A DNA stretch of 5,964 nt, taken from IMG/VR virus record IMGVR_UViG_2740892423_000011. One strand, written 5' to 3'. A model generated the notes under the pieces. That model was not told the DNA's origin. It saw nothing but the letters and a program-made list of their open reading frames with translations, and ran no database searches. This document shows, one piece after another, positions 699 through 5,964 of the stretch. The stretch is from a virus. Its lineage: Duplodnaviria > Heunggongvirae > Uroviricota > Caudoviricetes. A program made the translations under genes and the position numbers. Position 1 is the first letter of the stretch. Every line of letters begins with the position of its first letter.

Positions 699-1259
699 TT
701 ATTCTCCCGCCTCAATCACCACATCAATATGCGCAGTCACCGCGCCACCAACATAAAACTGGCTGTCCTTTCCGATATCCGTATTTACGTCAATGGTGCT
801 CAGACCGCTGCGTAAATTCTTGGCCTTAATGACCAGCGCCCTGACCTGACTGTAAAGCACACTGTCAGCACCTTCCCGCAAAAACAGCTCCACACGAAAG
901 GTGTACGGTTTTTTGCGCGGTGAATCCTGCCACCACTCTTTGATTGCTGCCGGAACACCAACCGCACCAAGCGCCCGCAGCACTGCCCCCGCCGTTCCCC
1001 GGTGCTGATGCACATATGCCGCATCACGTAAAATTTGCCGCTTCTGCTCTTCACTCCAGTCATCCTGCCAGAAATCCACAGCAAACTCCCAGGCCAGCAT
1101 CGGCAACAGATGCGATGGACAGGTGTCGGGGTTCTTCACCTTTCTGACCATATCCGTATCAAGCGTCAGGATGCTTTCTGTTGTGGCCTGCTCCTGTACC
1201 CGCTCCGGCCTGACAGCGGAAGGCGGCAGAAGTGAGCGATACGTCTCCGCCATCATCAC
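699..1259 (-). CDS. Baseplate assembly protein, P2 gpI-like (tail protein I family)
   Basis: 186-codon ORF from the track. Its GTG start at 1259..1257 overlaps the gpJ TGA stop, with in-frame ATGs at 1256 and 1253 preceded by AAGAGG. Size matches P2 gpI (~176 aa) and it lies between the gpJ-like and tail-fiber genes. The translation contains MLAWEFAVDFW, which I associate with tail protein I. Confidence 0.78.
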   Translation of the reverse strand: MMMAETYRSLLPPSAVRPERVQEQATTESILTLDTDMVRKVKNPDTCPSHLLPMLAWEFAVDFWQDDWSEEQKRQILRDAAYVHQHRGTAGAVLRALGAVGVPAAIKEWWQDSPRKKPYTFRVELFLREGADSVLYSQVRALVIKAKNLRSGLSTIDVNTDIGKDSQFYVGGAVTAHIDVVIEAGE

Positions 1260-2161
1260 ACCTCTTTACGCGTCACATTAACAGCGGCACAACGGGGAGC
1301 CGTACCGGTTGCCGGTTCAATATCAGCCCGGGGACTGGACAGAATAACCCGCGCCACACCAGTCTGTTGCAGTGCGGCGTAAATGGCGGACAGCGGCACC
1401 ATGCCATTAATCCGATTTGCCAGCCGGGTATAAGACAGCAGCGTGTTTTTTGCATTCTCCAGCACTTCACCAGCATCCGGACCGTCCGGTATTTCCAGCT
1501 CAGCCGTCACGGAATAGTCATTAATAATGGCGCTTTTCACCGTCACAAAATCCGTCAGCGGACGAATTTCATCAGCATTCAGCCGCGCACTGACCGCGTC
1601 CAGCAACGCCTCGCTGGCAGCGCCATTTCCTTCACGGGACAACACGTAGACATCCACCTCCCCCGCTCGCCCGTGCTCTTCCGGACCACAGGCATCAGCA
1701 TCCAGTACATCTTCATCAGCAGAACGGGCATGAAAACGATAGGCATTGCGGGCACCTGCGGTATTCAGTTGCGACCAGGACAACTGGATGCGTTCGCGAA
1801 AAGCATCGTCCTCTTCCATAATCGCATCCGTCGGAGGCACGGCATCCGGATTTGCCGGAACAACCACCATACGTTCGACATTGAACGTCGCACCAATCTG
1901 ATCGAGATCGGCCTTCTGTGCACTTGCCAGAAAAACAGCCCGCACGGCATCATTCACCCGCTGAAAAGCCAGGGTAAGCTGAAAGGCTGTCACTTCGCCC
2001 TGCTTGTAAACCGGGTCGGATTCCACCAGTGCATCAAATTCAGGATCCAGTTCGCGCAGACGTGCCAGCCAGGCCCCGAAAATCACCGACGCATCAGGCA
2101 CCACGATGGCATCCGGTACGGGCAAATCCGAAAGATTGATCACATCATAACTTTCTGCCAT
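1256..2161 (-). CDS. Baseplate assembly protein J (P2 gpJ-like, Baseplate_J family)
   Basis: 301-codon ORF; P2 gpJ is ~302 aa. Conserved-looking segments include INLSDLPVPD, RVNDAVRAVFLASA, NAYRFHARSADEDV, YVLSREGNGAASE, IRPLTDFVTVKSA and VPLSAIYAAL, which parallel P2 gpJ as recalled. The ATG at 2161 overlaps the gpW 3' end by 17 nt. Confidence 0.85.
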   Translation of the reverse strand: MAESYDVINLSDLPVPDAIVVPDASVIFGAWLARLRELDPEFDALVESDPVYKQGEVTAFQLTLAFQRVNDAVRAVFLASAQKADLDQIGATFNVERMVVVPANPDAVPPTDAIMEEDDAFRERIQLSWSQLNTAGARNAYRFHARSADEDVLDADACGPEEHGRAGEVDVYVLSREGNGAASEALLDAVSARLNADEIRPLTDFVTVKSAIINDYSVTAELEIPDGPDAGEVLENAKNTLLSYTRLANRINGMVPLSAIYAALQQTGVARVILSSPRADIEPATGTAPRCAAVNVTRKEV

Positions 2162-2498
2162 AAACGGTTATTCCTCCTGTTGACACCTGTGTACCGGTTT
2201 CCGTATTCGTCCCCGTGATATCCACCACGCACCCGGTCTCATCTTCCGGAAACGTTACGATCACTTTTGACACTTTCAGCCGGGGTTCCCAGCGCGCCAG
2301 CGCCGTCGCCGTGGCAGCAATTATGCGCAGCCTCAGCAGGTCATCCCGGGGAGAGTCCAGCAATTCAAAAAGATCGCTGCCGTAATCCCTGACCAGAACA
2401 CGGCTTCCCACTGGCGTGTTCAGAATATCGCTGACTGACTGGCGCAGATGCGCCGCACCGGACAGGCGCTTCCCCGTCCGGCAGTTCACACCATTCAT
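2145..2498 (-). CDS. Baseplate wedge protein W (P2 gpW-like, GPW/gp25 family)
   Basis: 117-codon ORF; P2 gpW is ~115 aa. The motif DILNTPVGSRVLVRDYGS parallels P2 gpW DILRTPVGSRVMRRDYGS (from memory). The ATG at 2498 lies 2 nt after the gpD TAA stop (2501..2503). Confidence 0.85.
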   Translation of the reverse strand: MNGVNCRTGKRLSGAAHLRQSVSDILNTPVGSRVLVRDYGSDLFELLDSPRDDLLRLRIIAATATALARWEPRLKVSKVIVTFPEDETGCVVDITGTNTETGTQVSTGGITVYGRKL

Positions 2499-2500
2499 GA

Positions 2501-3688
2501 TTATTTTTTTCCTGATCCGGTACCAAAATAATCCGGCGGCGTTTTATCACCGGATTTTTTGCTTTTGATTTCAGCCACCAGATTAAACGTGAAGGTAAAG
2601 CCTGAAGAAGAGAGGGAAAACGCCAGTGACTCCACGAGCCAGCGGCGATCTTCCCGCTTACCAAATCCGGATGTCACCACGCCGGATTCGGCGGTCATGG
2701 CAACATATGAAGGACGGCACGGCCCTGTCAGCGTCATTTTCCGGCTGTTGCGTTGCGCCTGTGTTTTTTTTGACTTTGCCTGTTGTTCAGCCGTTTCCTT
2801 TTCCGGCTGCGTGTACGGACTGGTTACAGACGAGCCGTCATGCTCCACGGTTGCTGTTTTGGTTCGCCCGTCAGCCTTGTCAAAATAACGAACCGTGATT
2901 TTTTCTTTCTTCTTTTTTTTCTCACCACTGCCAACAGAACTTCCCCGTTCACCTTCCTGATAATTCCAGGATGACACCACGGAAGGTGTCAGCGTCACGG
3001 TCCTAAGGGGCGCACCCGATACGGTGGTTCCGGCACCCTGCTCCAGAAACAACCAGTAACCTCCGGCAGGTTTGCTGACGGCGTTATACGTCCGGGCAAG
3101 GCGGGATAACAGGCTGGCATCCGATTCTGCCACCTGATCAACATGGGGAATGCGGATCCCCGCCAGCTTCTCCGCCACCCGGGCCTTCAGTCCGTTTTCC
3201 GTGGCAACGGTTTTCACCAGATCACCCAGCGTGAGATTGTCCCAGCTTCGTGTTTTCTGATTCAGCACATCACCGGACTGCTTTTCCGCATTCATGGGAG
3301 CTGCGGTAGCATAAATTTCGATCCGGCGTGGCGGGCCGCTGCTGCTCACGCCGCACACCACAAACCAGCCCTTGTCCACCAGATTACCGTTAAACCCCAG
3401 CGCCACCCGCAGACGCGCCCCCTTTGTCGGCAGGGGCAGCGTTTCAGAAAGCAGCGTGATTTTCAGTTCATCAGACCTGGCGGTGGCTCCGCCGTAATCC
3501 GTCAGGGTGATATCCACAAGATAACGGGCCAGCACCCGCGTGATATCCCACCCTTCAGCTGTCACCCGATACGCCGGGCAGAATTCCCGGACGGTCGTGG
3601 CAATGGTTTCCTGTTTTTTCTCACTGTTCAGGGACTCCTGATACGCAGCATTTATCGCCTGCAGCTGTTCTGATAATGACGTCATCAT
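2501..3688 (-). CDS. Tail hub / late control protein D (P2 gpD-like), intact copy
   Basis: The track ORF is 2501..3706 from a GTG inside the gpX 3' end. The start is more likely the ATG at 3688 or 3685 (MMTSLSEQ), preceded by GGGAGGAG. Length (~395 aa) matches P2 gpD (387 aa). LAGIRIPHVDQ parallels P2 LAGIKIPHIDQ, and a lysine-rich linker GEKKKKKEK mirrors the K-rich segment of P2 gpD (both from memory). Confidence 0.8.
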   Translation of the reverse strand: MMTSLSEQLQAINAAYQESLNSEKKQETIATTVREFCPAYRVTAEGWDITRVLARYLVDITLTDYGGATARSDELKITLLSETLPLPTKGARLRVALGFNGNLVDKGWFVVCGVSSSGPPRRIEIYATAAPMNAEKQSGDVLNQKTRSWDNLTLGDLVKTVATENGLKARVAEKLAGIRIPHVDQVAESDASLLSRLARTYNAVSKPAGGYWLFLEQGAGTTVSGAPLRTVTLTPSVVSSWNYQEGERGSSVGSGEKKKKKEKITVRYFDKADGRTKTATVEHDGSSVTSPYTQPEKETAEQQAKSKKTQAQRNSRKMTLTGPCRPSYVAMTAESGVVTSGFGKREDRRWLVESLAFSLSSSGFTFTFNLVAEIKSKKSGDKTPPDYFGTGSGKK

Positions 3689-3881
3689 CTCCTCCCTTAA
3701 TCCCACAGGCTGTATGGCGACTCAGACACCTGTTGTGTGATTTCAGGCAACACAATGCGGATCCCCGCCGGATAAACCGCCCCCTTATCTGCCAGCCCCT
3801 GATTGGCCTCCAGCACAAGAGTGAGCACGGCAGACAGATTTTCCGTGCCGTAATGCGTGGCGCAAATCGCATCAAGCACAT
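2943..3881. repeat. Direct repeat copy A (~939 bp), covering the gpD 5' region plus gpX 3' region
   Basis: By-eye alignment at a constant offset of 963 nt to 3906..4844: about 30 substitutions and no indels (~97% identity). Copy A ends exactly at the N run. Confidence 0.9.
3697..3881 (-). CDS. Tail protein X (P2 gpX-like), copy A; N-terminal ~11 codons lost in the assembly gap
   Basis: Open frame from the gap edge to TAA at 3697..3699, translating VLDAICATHYGTENLSAVLTLVLEANQGLADKGAVYPAGIRIVLPEITQQVSESPYSLWD. This is near-identical to the intact copy B at 4660..4875. The track ORF 3697..3915 spans the N run and is a chimera. Confidence 0.6.
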
Positions 3882-3891
3882 NNNNNNNNNN
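3882..3891. other. Run of 10 N: scaffold or assembly gap of unknown true length
   Basis: Ten consecutive n characters seen directly in the sequence; 10 or 100 N is a common placeholder for unsized gaps. Confidence 0.95.
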
Positions 3892-4651
3892 CTCCGGTAG
3901 AGCTCCCCCGTTCACCTTCCTGATAATTCCAGGATGACACCACGGAAGGTGTCAGCGTCACGGTCCTAAGGGGCGCGCCCGATACGGTGGTTCCGGCACC
4001 CTGCTCCAGAAACAACCAGTAACCTCCGGCAGGTTTACTGACGGCGTTATACGTCCGGGCAAGGCGGGACAACAGGCTGGCATCCGATTCTGCCACCTGA
4101 TCCACATGGGTAATGCGGATCCCCGCCAGCTTCTCCGCCACCCGGGCCTTCAGTCCGTTTTCCGTGGCAACAGTTTTCACCAGATCACCCAGCGTGAGAT
4201 TATCCCAGCTTCGTGTTTTCTGATTCAGCACGTCGCCGGACTGCTTTTCCGCATTCATGGGGGCAGCAGTAGCATAAATTTCGATCCGACGCGGCGGGCC
4301 GCTGCTGCTCACGCCGCACACCACAAACCAGCCCTTGTCCACCAGATTACCGTTAAACCCCAGCGCCACCCGCAGACGTGCCCCCTTTGTCGGCAGGGGC
4401 AGTCTTTCAGAAAGCAGCGTGATCTTCAGTTCATCAGACCTGGCGGTGGCTCCGCCGTAATCCGTCAGGGTGATATCCACAAGATAACGGGCCAGCACCC
4501 GCGTGATATCCCGCCCTTCAGCTGTCACCCGATACGCCGGGCAGAATTCCCGGACAGTCGTGGCGATGGTTTCCTGTTTTTTCTCATTTTTCAGGGACGC
4601 CTGATACGCGGCATTTATTGCCTGCAGCTGTTCTGATAATGACGTCATCAT
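3892..4651 (-). CDS. Second copy of the gpD-like N-terminal region (~254 codons), 3'-truncated at the N gap
   Basis: Minus-strand frame MMTSLSEQLQAINAAYQASLKNEKKQ ... NYQEGERGSSTG runs into the N run. It is ~97% identical in nucleotides to 2943..3688 of the intact gpD, with about 6 amino-acid differences across the shared region (E to A, N to K, S to N, W to R, T to R, P to T). The ATG at 4651 has the same GGGAGGAG context. Confidence 0.6.
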
Positions 4652-4844
4652 CTCCTCCCTTAATCCCACAGGCTGTATGGCGACTCAGACACCTGTTGTG
4701 TGATTTCAGGCAACGCAATGCGGATCCCCGCCGGATAAACCGCGCCTTTCTCTGCCAGCCCCTGATTGGCCTCCAGCACAAGAGTGAGCACGGCAGACAG
4801 ATTTTCCGTGCCGTAATGCGTGGCGCAAATCGCATCAAGCACAT
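3906..4844. repeat. Direct repeat copy B (~939 bp), partner of 2943..3881
   Basis: Same alignment as copy A. Similarity starts 14 nt after the N run and ends at 4844 (acat), after which copy B continues into unique gpX N-terminal and gpU sequence. Confidence 0.9.
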
Positions 4845-4875
4845 CCCCGTCACGGGTTATCCAGATCGTCGGCAT
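4660..4875 (-). CDS. Tail protein X (P2 gpX-like, LysM-like), intact copy B
   Basis: 71-codon ORF; P2 gpX is 67 aa. MPTIWITRDGDVLDAICATHYG ... PYSLWD parallels P2 gpX MKTFALQGDTLDAICVRYYG ... NLWE (from memory). The ATG at 4875 overlaps the gpU 3' end, and its TAA stop at 4660..4662 lies just before the gpD copy-B start. Confidence 0.8.
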   Translation of the reverse strand: MPTIWITRDGDVLDAICATHYGTENLSAVLTLVLEANQGLAEKGAVYPAGIRIALPEITQQVSESPYSLWD

Positions 4876-5329
4876 AATGTTTCAGCTCCAGACTCCACTT
4901 TTTGTTACGGTGCCCACCGCCAGGCAAAAAACGGTCGGTGGAATCAGAAAAACGCTCCACCACCCACCATCCCAGCACATCACCTTCTCCGCTGACCAGC
5001 AGTTGCGGCTCAGCCTTATTCGCCAGGTCATACAGCGTGTTCACCGCCTCCGTCCCCGACTTCCCCAAAAAGGCGTGCGATTCCCCTTCAAGGCGAACGG
5101 TTCGCCCGTTCTTCCCGGTGTACTGCAGCAGACTCTGCTGACCGATGCGCGCCTGCTCGCTCCAGGTCCACCCCGCCTCACGGGTCAGCTGGTTATATGC
5201 CGTGGTATCCACGGAAAAGGCGAAATCCCCCAGCATCAGCATGACTCTGGCATCTGCAGCACCACGGAGATAACTGTTGTCACGCTGAAGGCTGTCTTCA
5301 GCGAGAGCAATAACCGAACCCACACTCAC
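4850..5329 (-). CDS. Tail protein U (P2 gpU-like)
   Basis: The track ORF is 4850..5350 (GTG start). I prefer the in-frame GTG at 5329..5327, which overlaps the tape-measure TGA (5326..5328) as GTGA and has GGAGGA about 9 nt upstream, giving ~159 aa (P2 gpU is ~159 aa). Later ATGs at 5242 and 5236 (MLMLGDF) are alternatives. The translation contains DFAFSVDTTAYNQL and LLVSGEGDVLGWWVVERF, typical of the gpU family as I recall it. Confidence 0.75.
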   Translation of the reverse strand: MSVGSVIALAEDSLQRDNSYLRGAADARVMLMLGDFAFSVDTTAYNQLTREAGWTWSEQARIGQQSLLQYTGKNGRTVRLEGESHAFLGKSGTEAVNTLYDLANKAEPQLLVSGEGDVLGWWVVERFSDSTDRFLPGGGHRNKKWSLELKHYADDLDNP

Positions 5330-5964
5330 CAGACACTTCCTCCATCCCACAACGCATTATTACCACTGAAGGTCGGGTTGTTTTTCGTCATACCGGCAAT
5401 GGCGTCCGCAATACCCTGTTCGCTCTGTCCGGGCTGCGCAACAATGTTGAAGTTATAATTCTTCACGCTGTTGTCATTCAGCTGTGCGCCGGACTGTCCG
5501 CCCTCAACAGGAATGGCCTGCACGGCAGCCTGCCATGCTCCCGCACTGGCAAAAGGATCATCCTGTTTTCCGGCAGATCCTGCCTGCGCTGCCGGCAACG
5601 AAAAATCGAACGTTTTTTCCGGCGTGAGGTAACTGTTCACCGATTCATGAAACGCATCCGTATCCACAATGCCCATAAAGCCCTTCGCGGCGTTATATTT
5701 TTCACGGACATTCTTTTCAAAATCCGGATTATTTTTCAGTTGCTCATCAAGCCAGGCATCCTGCCCGCTGTTCCGGGCCACTGTCCGGGCAGCGGTCATG
5801 TCACCACGCCCGACATACTCCAGAATCTGCTTCTGATCGCCCTGTTCATCCGGTAATAACCAGGCGAGTTTTTTGGCTACTGCAAAAATAATTTTTCCGA
5901 CAAAAATGACGCCTTCGCCGAACTTCAGGGCCGCCGGATACAGCGTGTCCCTCAGAAAAGACAC
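5326..5964 (-). CDS. Tail tape-measure protein, C-terminal portion (5' end beyond the window)
   Basis: The frame is open from the window edge (the leading M in the track is a GTG artefact of the edge) to TGA at 5326..5328. The Gly/Ala/Gln/Asn-rich C-terminus (…NNALWDGGSVW) sits immediately upstream of gpU, which is the tape-measure position in P2-like tails. Assignment is by synteny and composition only. Confidence 0.55.
   Translation of the reverse strand: MSFLRDTLYPAALKFGEGVIFVGKIIFAVAKKLAWLLPDEQGDQKQILEYVGRGDMTAARTVARNSGQDAWLDEQLKNNPDFEKNVREKYNAAKGFMGIVDTDAFHESVNSYLTPEKTFDFSLPAAQAGSAGKQDDPFASAGAWQAAVQAIPVEGGQSGAQLNDNSVKNYNFNIVAQPGQSEQGIADAIAGMTKNNPTFSGNNALWDGGSVW

Follow-up and report, generated by a model that had tools for sequence, protein, structure and literature searches.

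An apparent tandem gpX-gpD repeat in an E. coli prophage tail record as a probable false duplication of two related alleles

Tail genes and repeat copies around a scaffold gap

The window, by which we mean the whole stretch of 5,964 nt analysed here, is the entire NCBI WGS record JRGD01000167.1 from the E. coli draft assembly GCA_000754845.1. The proteins of this record are labelled Escherichia coli, and the assembly is the draft of an isolate rather than a metagenome. From open reading frames and Pfam matches we find that all genes of the window lie on the minus strand and together form one contractile-tail module, with both ends of the record falling within genes, as is typical of small contigs from repeated regions. 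A run of Ns divides the record into contig 1 (1-3881) and contig 2 (3892-5964). The features are as follows, with allele names (alpha and beta) referring to the two lineages described in the next section.

Left end of window, minus strand: start only of a tail-fibre gene, downstream of gpI
699-1259, minus strand: gpI, baseplate gene, alpha lineage
1256-2161, minus strand: gpJ, baseplate gene, alpha lineage
2145-2498, minus strand: gpW, GPW/gp25 baseplate wedge, containing a switch from alpha to beta (2286-2436)
2501-3706, minus strand: full-length gpD ORF of contig 1, baseplate hub, Pfam Phage_GPD; the RefSeq start is at 3685 (394 aa)
2897-2942, minus strand: Lys-rich gpD linker (coding strand ...GAAAAAAAAGAAGAAAGAAAAAATC...), whose length differs between lineages
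2929-3881, minus strand: copy A of the repeat, closing contig 1 on its 3' side; gpX from codon 12 to 71 plus ~259 N-terminal gpD codons; alpha allele with the long Lys-linker
3697-3881, minus strand: gpX fragment of contig 1, the last 60 codons and the stop, N-terminus lost in the gap; RefSeq WP_032083204.1
3882-3891, no strand: scaffold gap of 10 Ns, the sole non-ACGT stretch of the record and the junction of both the pieces and the repeat copies
3892-4844, minus strand: copy B of the repeat, opening contig 2 on its 5' side; as much of gpX as in copy A, plus gpD codons 1-259; beta allele with the short Lys-linker
3892-4669, minus strand: gpD fragment of contig 2, 258-259 codons without a stop, entering the gap
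4660-4875, minus strand: complete gpX of contig 2, tail protein X, 71 aa, Pfam Phage_tail_X
4850-5350, minus strand: gpU, Pfam Phage_P2_GpU (P2 GpU family), in the unique part of contig 2
5326-5964, minus strand: C-terminal 212 codons of the tape-measure protein, cut by the record end; 552 aa in complete genomes

The full-length gpD ORF scores 37.3 bits against Phage_GPD (PF05954) and so passes the gathering cutoff of 30.1, while the truncated copy-B fragment, at 25.8 bits, stays under it because its C-terminal part is missing. For Phage_tail_X (PF05489), with a cutoff of 22, both the gpX ORF at 4660-4875 (55.8 bits) and the 60-aa gpX fragment (48.4 bits) pass. The PF05954 match likens gpD to hubs of the P2 gpD/Mu gp44 type (RefSeq 'contractile injection system protein, VgrG/Pvc8 family'), and so does its position in a contractile-tail cluster, where tail protein X lies on one side of it and gpW/gpJ/gpI on the other; it differs from P2 gpD in being distant from P2 and in carrying a Lys-rich linker of variable length. 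The nearest gpD of any isolated phage in a protein search is that of Citrobacter phage Chris1 (67.7% amino-acid identity), with Hafnia phage yong2 at 62%, and a nucleotide search of the isolated-phage collection returned nothing closely related to the X-D region, the one match being Hafnia phage yong2, at 75% and over a part of that region. The gene order here is T-U-X-D-W-J-I with gpV upstream of the sheath gene, and the P2 tail gene order differs from this. In the same way, gpX resembles P2 tail protein X in its PF05489 match but stands between U and D in the tail module, whereas P2 X adjoins the lysis genes.

The cluster belongs to an E. coli prophage family that combines a lambda-like head module with a P2/Mu-like contractile tail. 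In the prophage of strain JNEC-KY178 (L001, 7015-28982), inserted at ompW beside trp-yciGFE, gpV lies upstream of the sheath gene, U-X-D runs directly into W-J-I-H, and the lambda-like head module includes gpFI, a head decoration protein, an S49 peptidase and a portal; at the DNA level, the isolated-phage collection has nothing close to this prophage. The two genes at the ends of the window deserve a brief comment. A Pfam search with the C-terminal 212 aa of the tape-measure protein gave no matches. The 552-aa protein encoded at 16344-18002 of L001, like its equivalents in L002 and L005, lies between the tail assembly chaperone and gpU, and RefSeq names this putative tape-measure protein 'AAA family ATPase' in several genomes, elsewhere 'hypothetical protein'; we assign it as the tape-measure protein by position, and the ATPase name looks like a mis-annotation. 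At the other end, the tail-fibre fragment (1-254) has matches of ~94-96% in hundreds of E. coli genomes and in phages such as phiP27 and Rac-SA53, which makes it far commoner than the remaining cluster, as is typical of a shared tail-fibre cassette.

Differences between the copies and their natural lineages

Copies A and B align without gaps at an offset of 963. They differ at 30 positions in a 939-nt core (3.2%; 96.8% identity) and at 7 more in the 14 nt adjoining the gap, giving 96.1% identity across all 953 nt. A sequence-only reading of the window had counted about 30 differences with about eight amino-acid changes, six in gpD and two in gpX, and in the core we find six in gpD (E24A, N27K, S28N, W53R, T89R and P187T) and two in gpX (D31E and V43A), with V258T in the gap-adjacent stretch as an addition. 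The same reading described both copies as keeping intact frames. This is right insofar as both copies are free of frameshifts and internal stops, but the gap truncates both inner genes: gpD of copy B ends at codon 259 of about 390, and gpX of copy A is without its first 11 codons.

The distribution of the core differences departs strongly from randomness. Codon positions 1, 2 and 3 carry 2, 4 and 24 of them (chi-square p = 4e-7), transitions outnumber transversions 22 to 8, and only 8 of the 30 are nonsynonymous where 74% would be expected (binomial p = 7e-8); 30 substitutions drawn at random cause 22 amino-acid changes on average. Four methods place dN/dS at 0.09-0.13 for gpD, 0.33 for gpX and 0.12 for the two combined, far from the value near 1 that the sequence-only reading had named as refuting it. 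The absence of stops is weak evidence when taken alone because 30% of random substitution sets likewise leave both frames open; the informative signal is the synonymous excess rather than the open frames.

Each copy has close relatives of its own outside this record. We define lineage alpha by seven contigs (L011-L017) that stem from other assemblies and other sequencing runs of E. coli, and lineage beta by the complete genomes RM10740 and JNEC-KY178, with a divergence between the two of ~3% in X-D and 4-5% in I-J. Direct comparison shows that copy A (2929-3881) is 99.8-99.9% identical to alpha and 96.3-96.4% to beta, and that copy B (3892-4844) is 99.5-99.6% identical to beta and 96.6-96.7% to alpha. 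To the left of the repeat, gpI (699-1259; alpha 99.5-99.8%, beta 96.0-96.2%) and gpJ (1256-2161; alpha 99.9-100%, beta 95.5%) follow alpha, and the remainder of contig 2 (4845-5964) stands at 99.6% to alpha and 99.9% to beta. The 14 divergent bases beside the gap are the shorter Lys-linker allele of beta, and they are covered by the beta match, which extends over the full 953 nt of copy B. Because each copy is nearer to a separate natural lineage in which the locus is single-copy, the two are alleles and not paralogues that arose in place. The earlier proposal of two independently maintained functional alleles, as opposed to a decaying duplicate, is thus supported both by a dN/dS of about 0.1 and by the presence of each copy in a single-copy lineage of its own.

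It also follows from the separate lineage matches that the differences are not sequencing errors, with one possible exception. At the 37 sites where A and B differ, every copy-B state occurs in other genomes. Six copy-A states were missing from the first comparison panel, and all but one of these were then found in alpha. The remaining one, at position 3550, gives Trp (TGG) in copy A at gpD codon 53 in place of Arg (CGG) and is private to this record among the genomes and contigs compared; either a mutation peculiar to this record or a miscalled base could account for it.

Proposed assembly of two alleles across the gap

The position of the repeat relative to the gap can be read directly from the record. 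The N-run at 3882-3891 is flanked, base for base, by the end of copy A on one side and the start of copy B on the other, so that the offset is simply repeat plus gap (963 = 953 + 10). Because the copies abut the Ns exactly, we take them to be the overlapping ends of two assembled pieces. The state of the locus elsewhere is equally plain: eight complete E. coli genomes with the tail cluster hold one X-D pair per cluster and match a 5,957-nt query over only about 4,980-5,010 nt, and a single pair is likewise present in each of seven further contigs with an identical gpJ (among the matches listed, out of 24 in all) and in a metagenome contig (L010). On this basis we conclude, with a probability of about 0.93, that the tandem gpX-gpD repeat is a false duplication, produced in the assembly and scaffolding of two related prophage tail alleles. 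The sequence-only reading had suggested that two related tail clusters were collapsed or chimerised here, and the second of these agrees with the copies meeting at the scaffold gap and with the alternation between lineages along the window.

To interpret how such a structure might arise, we infer an assembly path from the divergence around the repeat. To the right of it, alpha and beta hardly differ, with 3 informative sites over 1,120 nt, and to the left lie ~145 nt in which they are identical. Contig 2 opens exactly where beta (…TTCTTCTTTT|CTCCGG…) parts from contig 1 (…TTCTTCTTTT|TTTTCTCACC…), on the first differing base, and contig 1 ends 94 nt past the last A/B difference (3787), an arrangement of ends that fits an assembly-graph bubble. 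In the proposed path, the sample would have contained two prophage tail clusters that were ~3% apart in gpX-gpD and had nearly identical flanks, and these flanks would have turned the assembly graph into a bubble with a shared left node, two arms and a shared right node. The left flank and the alpha arm would then have become contig 1, ending 94 nt into the shared right flank, and the beta arm with the right flank would have become contig 2, starting from the first beta-specific base. The scaffolder would have linked the contigs in the correct order and orientation, left them unmerged because their 953-nt overlap is only 97% identical, and written a minimal gap of 10 Ns; in short-read scaffolding, such a run would be a minimal placeholder for an overlap that could not be merged. 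The outcome on the scaffold would be T-U-X-D'-NNNNNNNNNN-'X-D-W-J-I, where each real phage would have T-U-X-D-W-J-I. Purifying selection on both alleles, as functional tail genes in their own lineages, explains the open frames and the low dN/dS. The 94-nt overhang would be in keeping with a de Bruijn k of 95, but we do not rely on this uncertain match, because with that k a 95-nt identical stretch within the repeat (3657-3751) would share one k-mer.

False heterotype duplication has been described in diploid vertebrate assemblies, where a scaffold gap between the copies together with allele-specific sequence is a hallmark (Ko et al. 2022, Genome Biol 23:205, PMC9516828); half read depth and discordant read pairs are further criteria of that paper, the latter with reference to Kelley & Salzberg. 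Our record resembles that situation in that diverged alleles of one locus stand next to each other on a scaffold as apparent paralogues with a gap between them, and in that false or truncated genes have been annotated as a result, here the 258-aa gpD and 60-aa gpX fragments and a mosaic gpD and gpW. Three features of the class are present here: a gap between the copies, allele-specific sequence in each, and a single-copy locus in correctly assembled genomes. What differs is the source of the alleles, which in the published cases are the parental haplotypes of a diploid and here, in a haploid genome, would be those of two related prophages or of two strains.

Two other explanations dispense with a second allele in the sample or with an artefact altogether. 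Taken literally, the record describes a prophage in which gpX-gpD' has truly been duplicated in part and in tandem and the 10 Ns hide a short real junction, and the open frames of both copies are in keeping with this. The features of a true tandem duplication are absent, however: the junction consists only of Ns and coincides exactly with the run, and the copies are not each other's closest relatives, each being at least 99.5% identical to a different lineage with single genes. The arrangement is also absent from every related genome or contig examined, and it would place two truncated genes, one for the hub and one for X, midway through an essential tail operon. We consider a real duplication very improbable and have rejected it on the N-run junction, the separate lineages and the single-copy state elsewhere. 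Alternatively, one allele plus noise could give two unlike copies if sequencing errors had accumulated at a low-coverage contig end, and the private Trp state at 3550 (W53R), where all other genomes compared have the copy-B state, is what such an error might look like. Against this, 24 of 30 differences fall at third codon positions, dN/dS is ~0.1, eight or fewer amino-acid changes were reached in 0 of 20,000 random trials, copy A is reproduced at 99.8-99.9% in seven contigs of other assemblies and runs, and every copy-B state is found in other genomes. Codon bias, dN/dS and this independent recovery of both alleles lead us to reject sequencing error for all but at most one site, and as an account of the repeat as a whole it is scarcely credible, even less so than a real duplication.

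Mosaic structure, source of the alleles and meaning

Even within contig 1, the window does not follow a single lineage. Painting the window with 190 sites that are informative between alpha and beta gives alpha from 2 to 2286, with four isolated exceptions in the fibre gene, then beta from 2436 to 2771 (24 consecutive sites, with 100% identity to RM10740 from about 2400 to 2916), then alpha again from 2917 to 3787 (49 consecutive sites), with contig 2 in beta. The gpD ORF at 2501-3706 is therefore itself a mosaic, alpha in its N-terminal part and linker and beta in its C-terminal part (2436-2771, to about 2916). The three switches of lineage sit in the three longest stretches where alpha and beta are identical (149, 145 and 300 nt), and inside the repeat, where both real haplotypes can be seen and the longest identical stretch is 95 nt, there are none. 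JRGD01000167.1 is the only contig on record with the mosaic gpD (WP_032083203.1) and gpW (WP_032083202.1), whereas other alleles of the gpD and gpW clusters occur on up to about 160 contigs each.

Switches that fall in the longest identical stretches are what an assembler would produce when it is unable to phase variants beyond its k-mer or read length, and we regard assembly switching as the probable source of the alpha-beta-alpha mosaic. A genuine recombinant is a rather unlikely alternative, given some room by the metagenome contig L010, in which an alpha linker is joined to a beta-like gpD body and which thereby shows that linker and gpD body are reshuffled in nature. In one form of this alternative, which we hold to be doubtful, co-resident prophages would have undergone real gene conversion, from beta to alpha, over ~500-600 nt that take in gpW at its 3' end and gpD in its C-terminal part. 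If true, the record would have caught resident prophages in the act of recombining within a baseplate hub gene that is essential, one edge of the tract lying at the Lys-linker of variable length.

The linker deserves attention in its own right. A-runs code for this Lys-rich segment (…GEKKKKKEK…; gpD codons ~255-270), whose length is not constant among relatives: gpD has 390, 394, 395 or 399 aa in E. coli genomes, and the L010 ORF reaches 406 aa. It is a hotspot of recombination or indels as well as an assembly break point. An exact search for the allele-A linker in the viral-contig and genome-contig collections gave no matches, and a metagenome scan found it in one contig, L010, which is not the source of the record.

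Returning to the false duplication of two alleles, we now consider where these alleles came from, a question on which the assembly path itself has no bearing since it would be the same in either of two cases. The alleles could belong to two related prophages in the same E. coli chromosome, or to two E. coli strains, each with one prophage, that were sequenced together through mixed culture or cross-contamination. The sequence is compatible with both, as strain mixtures likewise give bubbles and small chimeric scaffolds, and other lines of evidence have to be weighed. That the record comes from the draft genome of an isolate rather than from a metagenome speaks for double lysogeny, as do the differing integration sites of this prophage family (ompW in JNEC-KY178, ydfJ in TUM9812) and the chromosome of NY1601 (NZ_CM135959.1), which holds two copies of the same family at two sites with 99.93% identity over 11 kb. 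A further point comes from draft contig JRQF01000209.1, which equals positions 4695-5964 of the window and has the same end in gene T; this points to a repeat structure that is inherited rather than to a single contamination event, and an identical contig end in a second assembly is easier to understand as a genomic repeat structure that is shared. Two strains in one culture would also be expected to fragment the whole assembly. On the other side, alpha and beta occur together in 0 of 8 complete genomes. On balance we favour double lysogeny with modest confidence, and we consider a mixture of strains possible though unlikely.

The two comparison cases carry some detail of their own. The contig JRQF01000209.1 (L019; assembly GCA_000768125.1) is a 1,270-nt E. 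coli draft contig, 100% identical to its part of the window, and it stops at the same base as the window within the tape-measure gene. Divergence between alpha and beta does not explain this shared break, because their near-identity continues for ~1.4 kb beyond it; the break may reflect a related strain, use of the same pipeline or a third repeat. In NY1601, the two copies of the tail region (L005 and L006) lie at about 1.98 Mb and about 4.12 Mb and differ by 8 mismatches in 11,009 nt, the product of either a recent double lysogeny or a duplication. The double lysogeny that we favour for the source strain would be the same situation as two resident prophages in NY1601, but with alleles much less alike, alpha and beta being ~3% apart in X-D and 4-5% apart in I-J.

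What does the finding mean in practice? JRGD01000167.1 gives the false appearance of a tandem gpX-gpD duplication in a prophage, and the value of recognising this lies mainly in data hygiene. It has given rise to artefact-derived RefSeq and UniRef entries, each on one contig only, namely the gpX fragment WP_032083204.1, the gpD WP_032083203.1 and the gpW WP_032083202.1, and such records would mislead gene-copy counts, family building and the inference of duplication in phage tail modules from draft assemblies. False heterotype duplication thus also arises in haploid bacterial drafts that contain two related prophages or two strains, and an N-run that coincides with the boundaries of a repeat allows such a case to be spotted quickly. 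Biologically there is nothing unusual here: the prophage alleles are related and under purifying selection, and the tail genes are mosaic.
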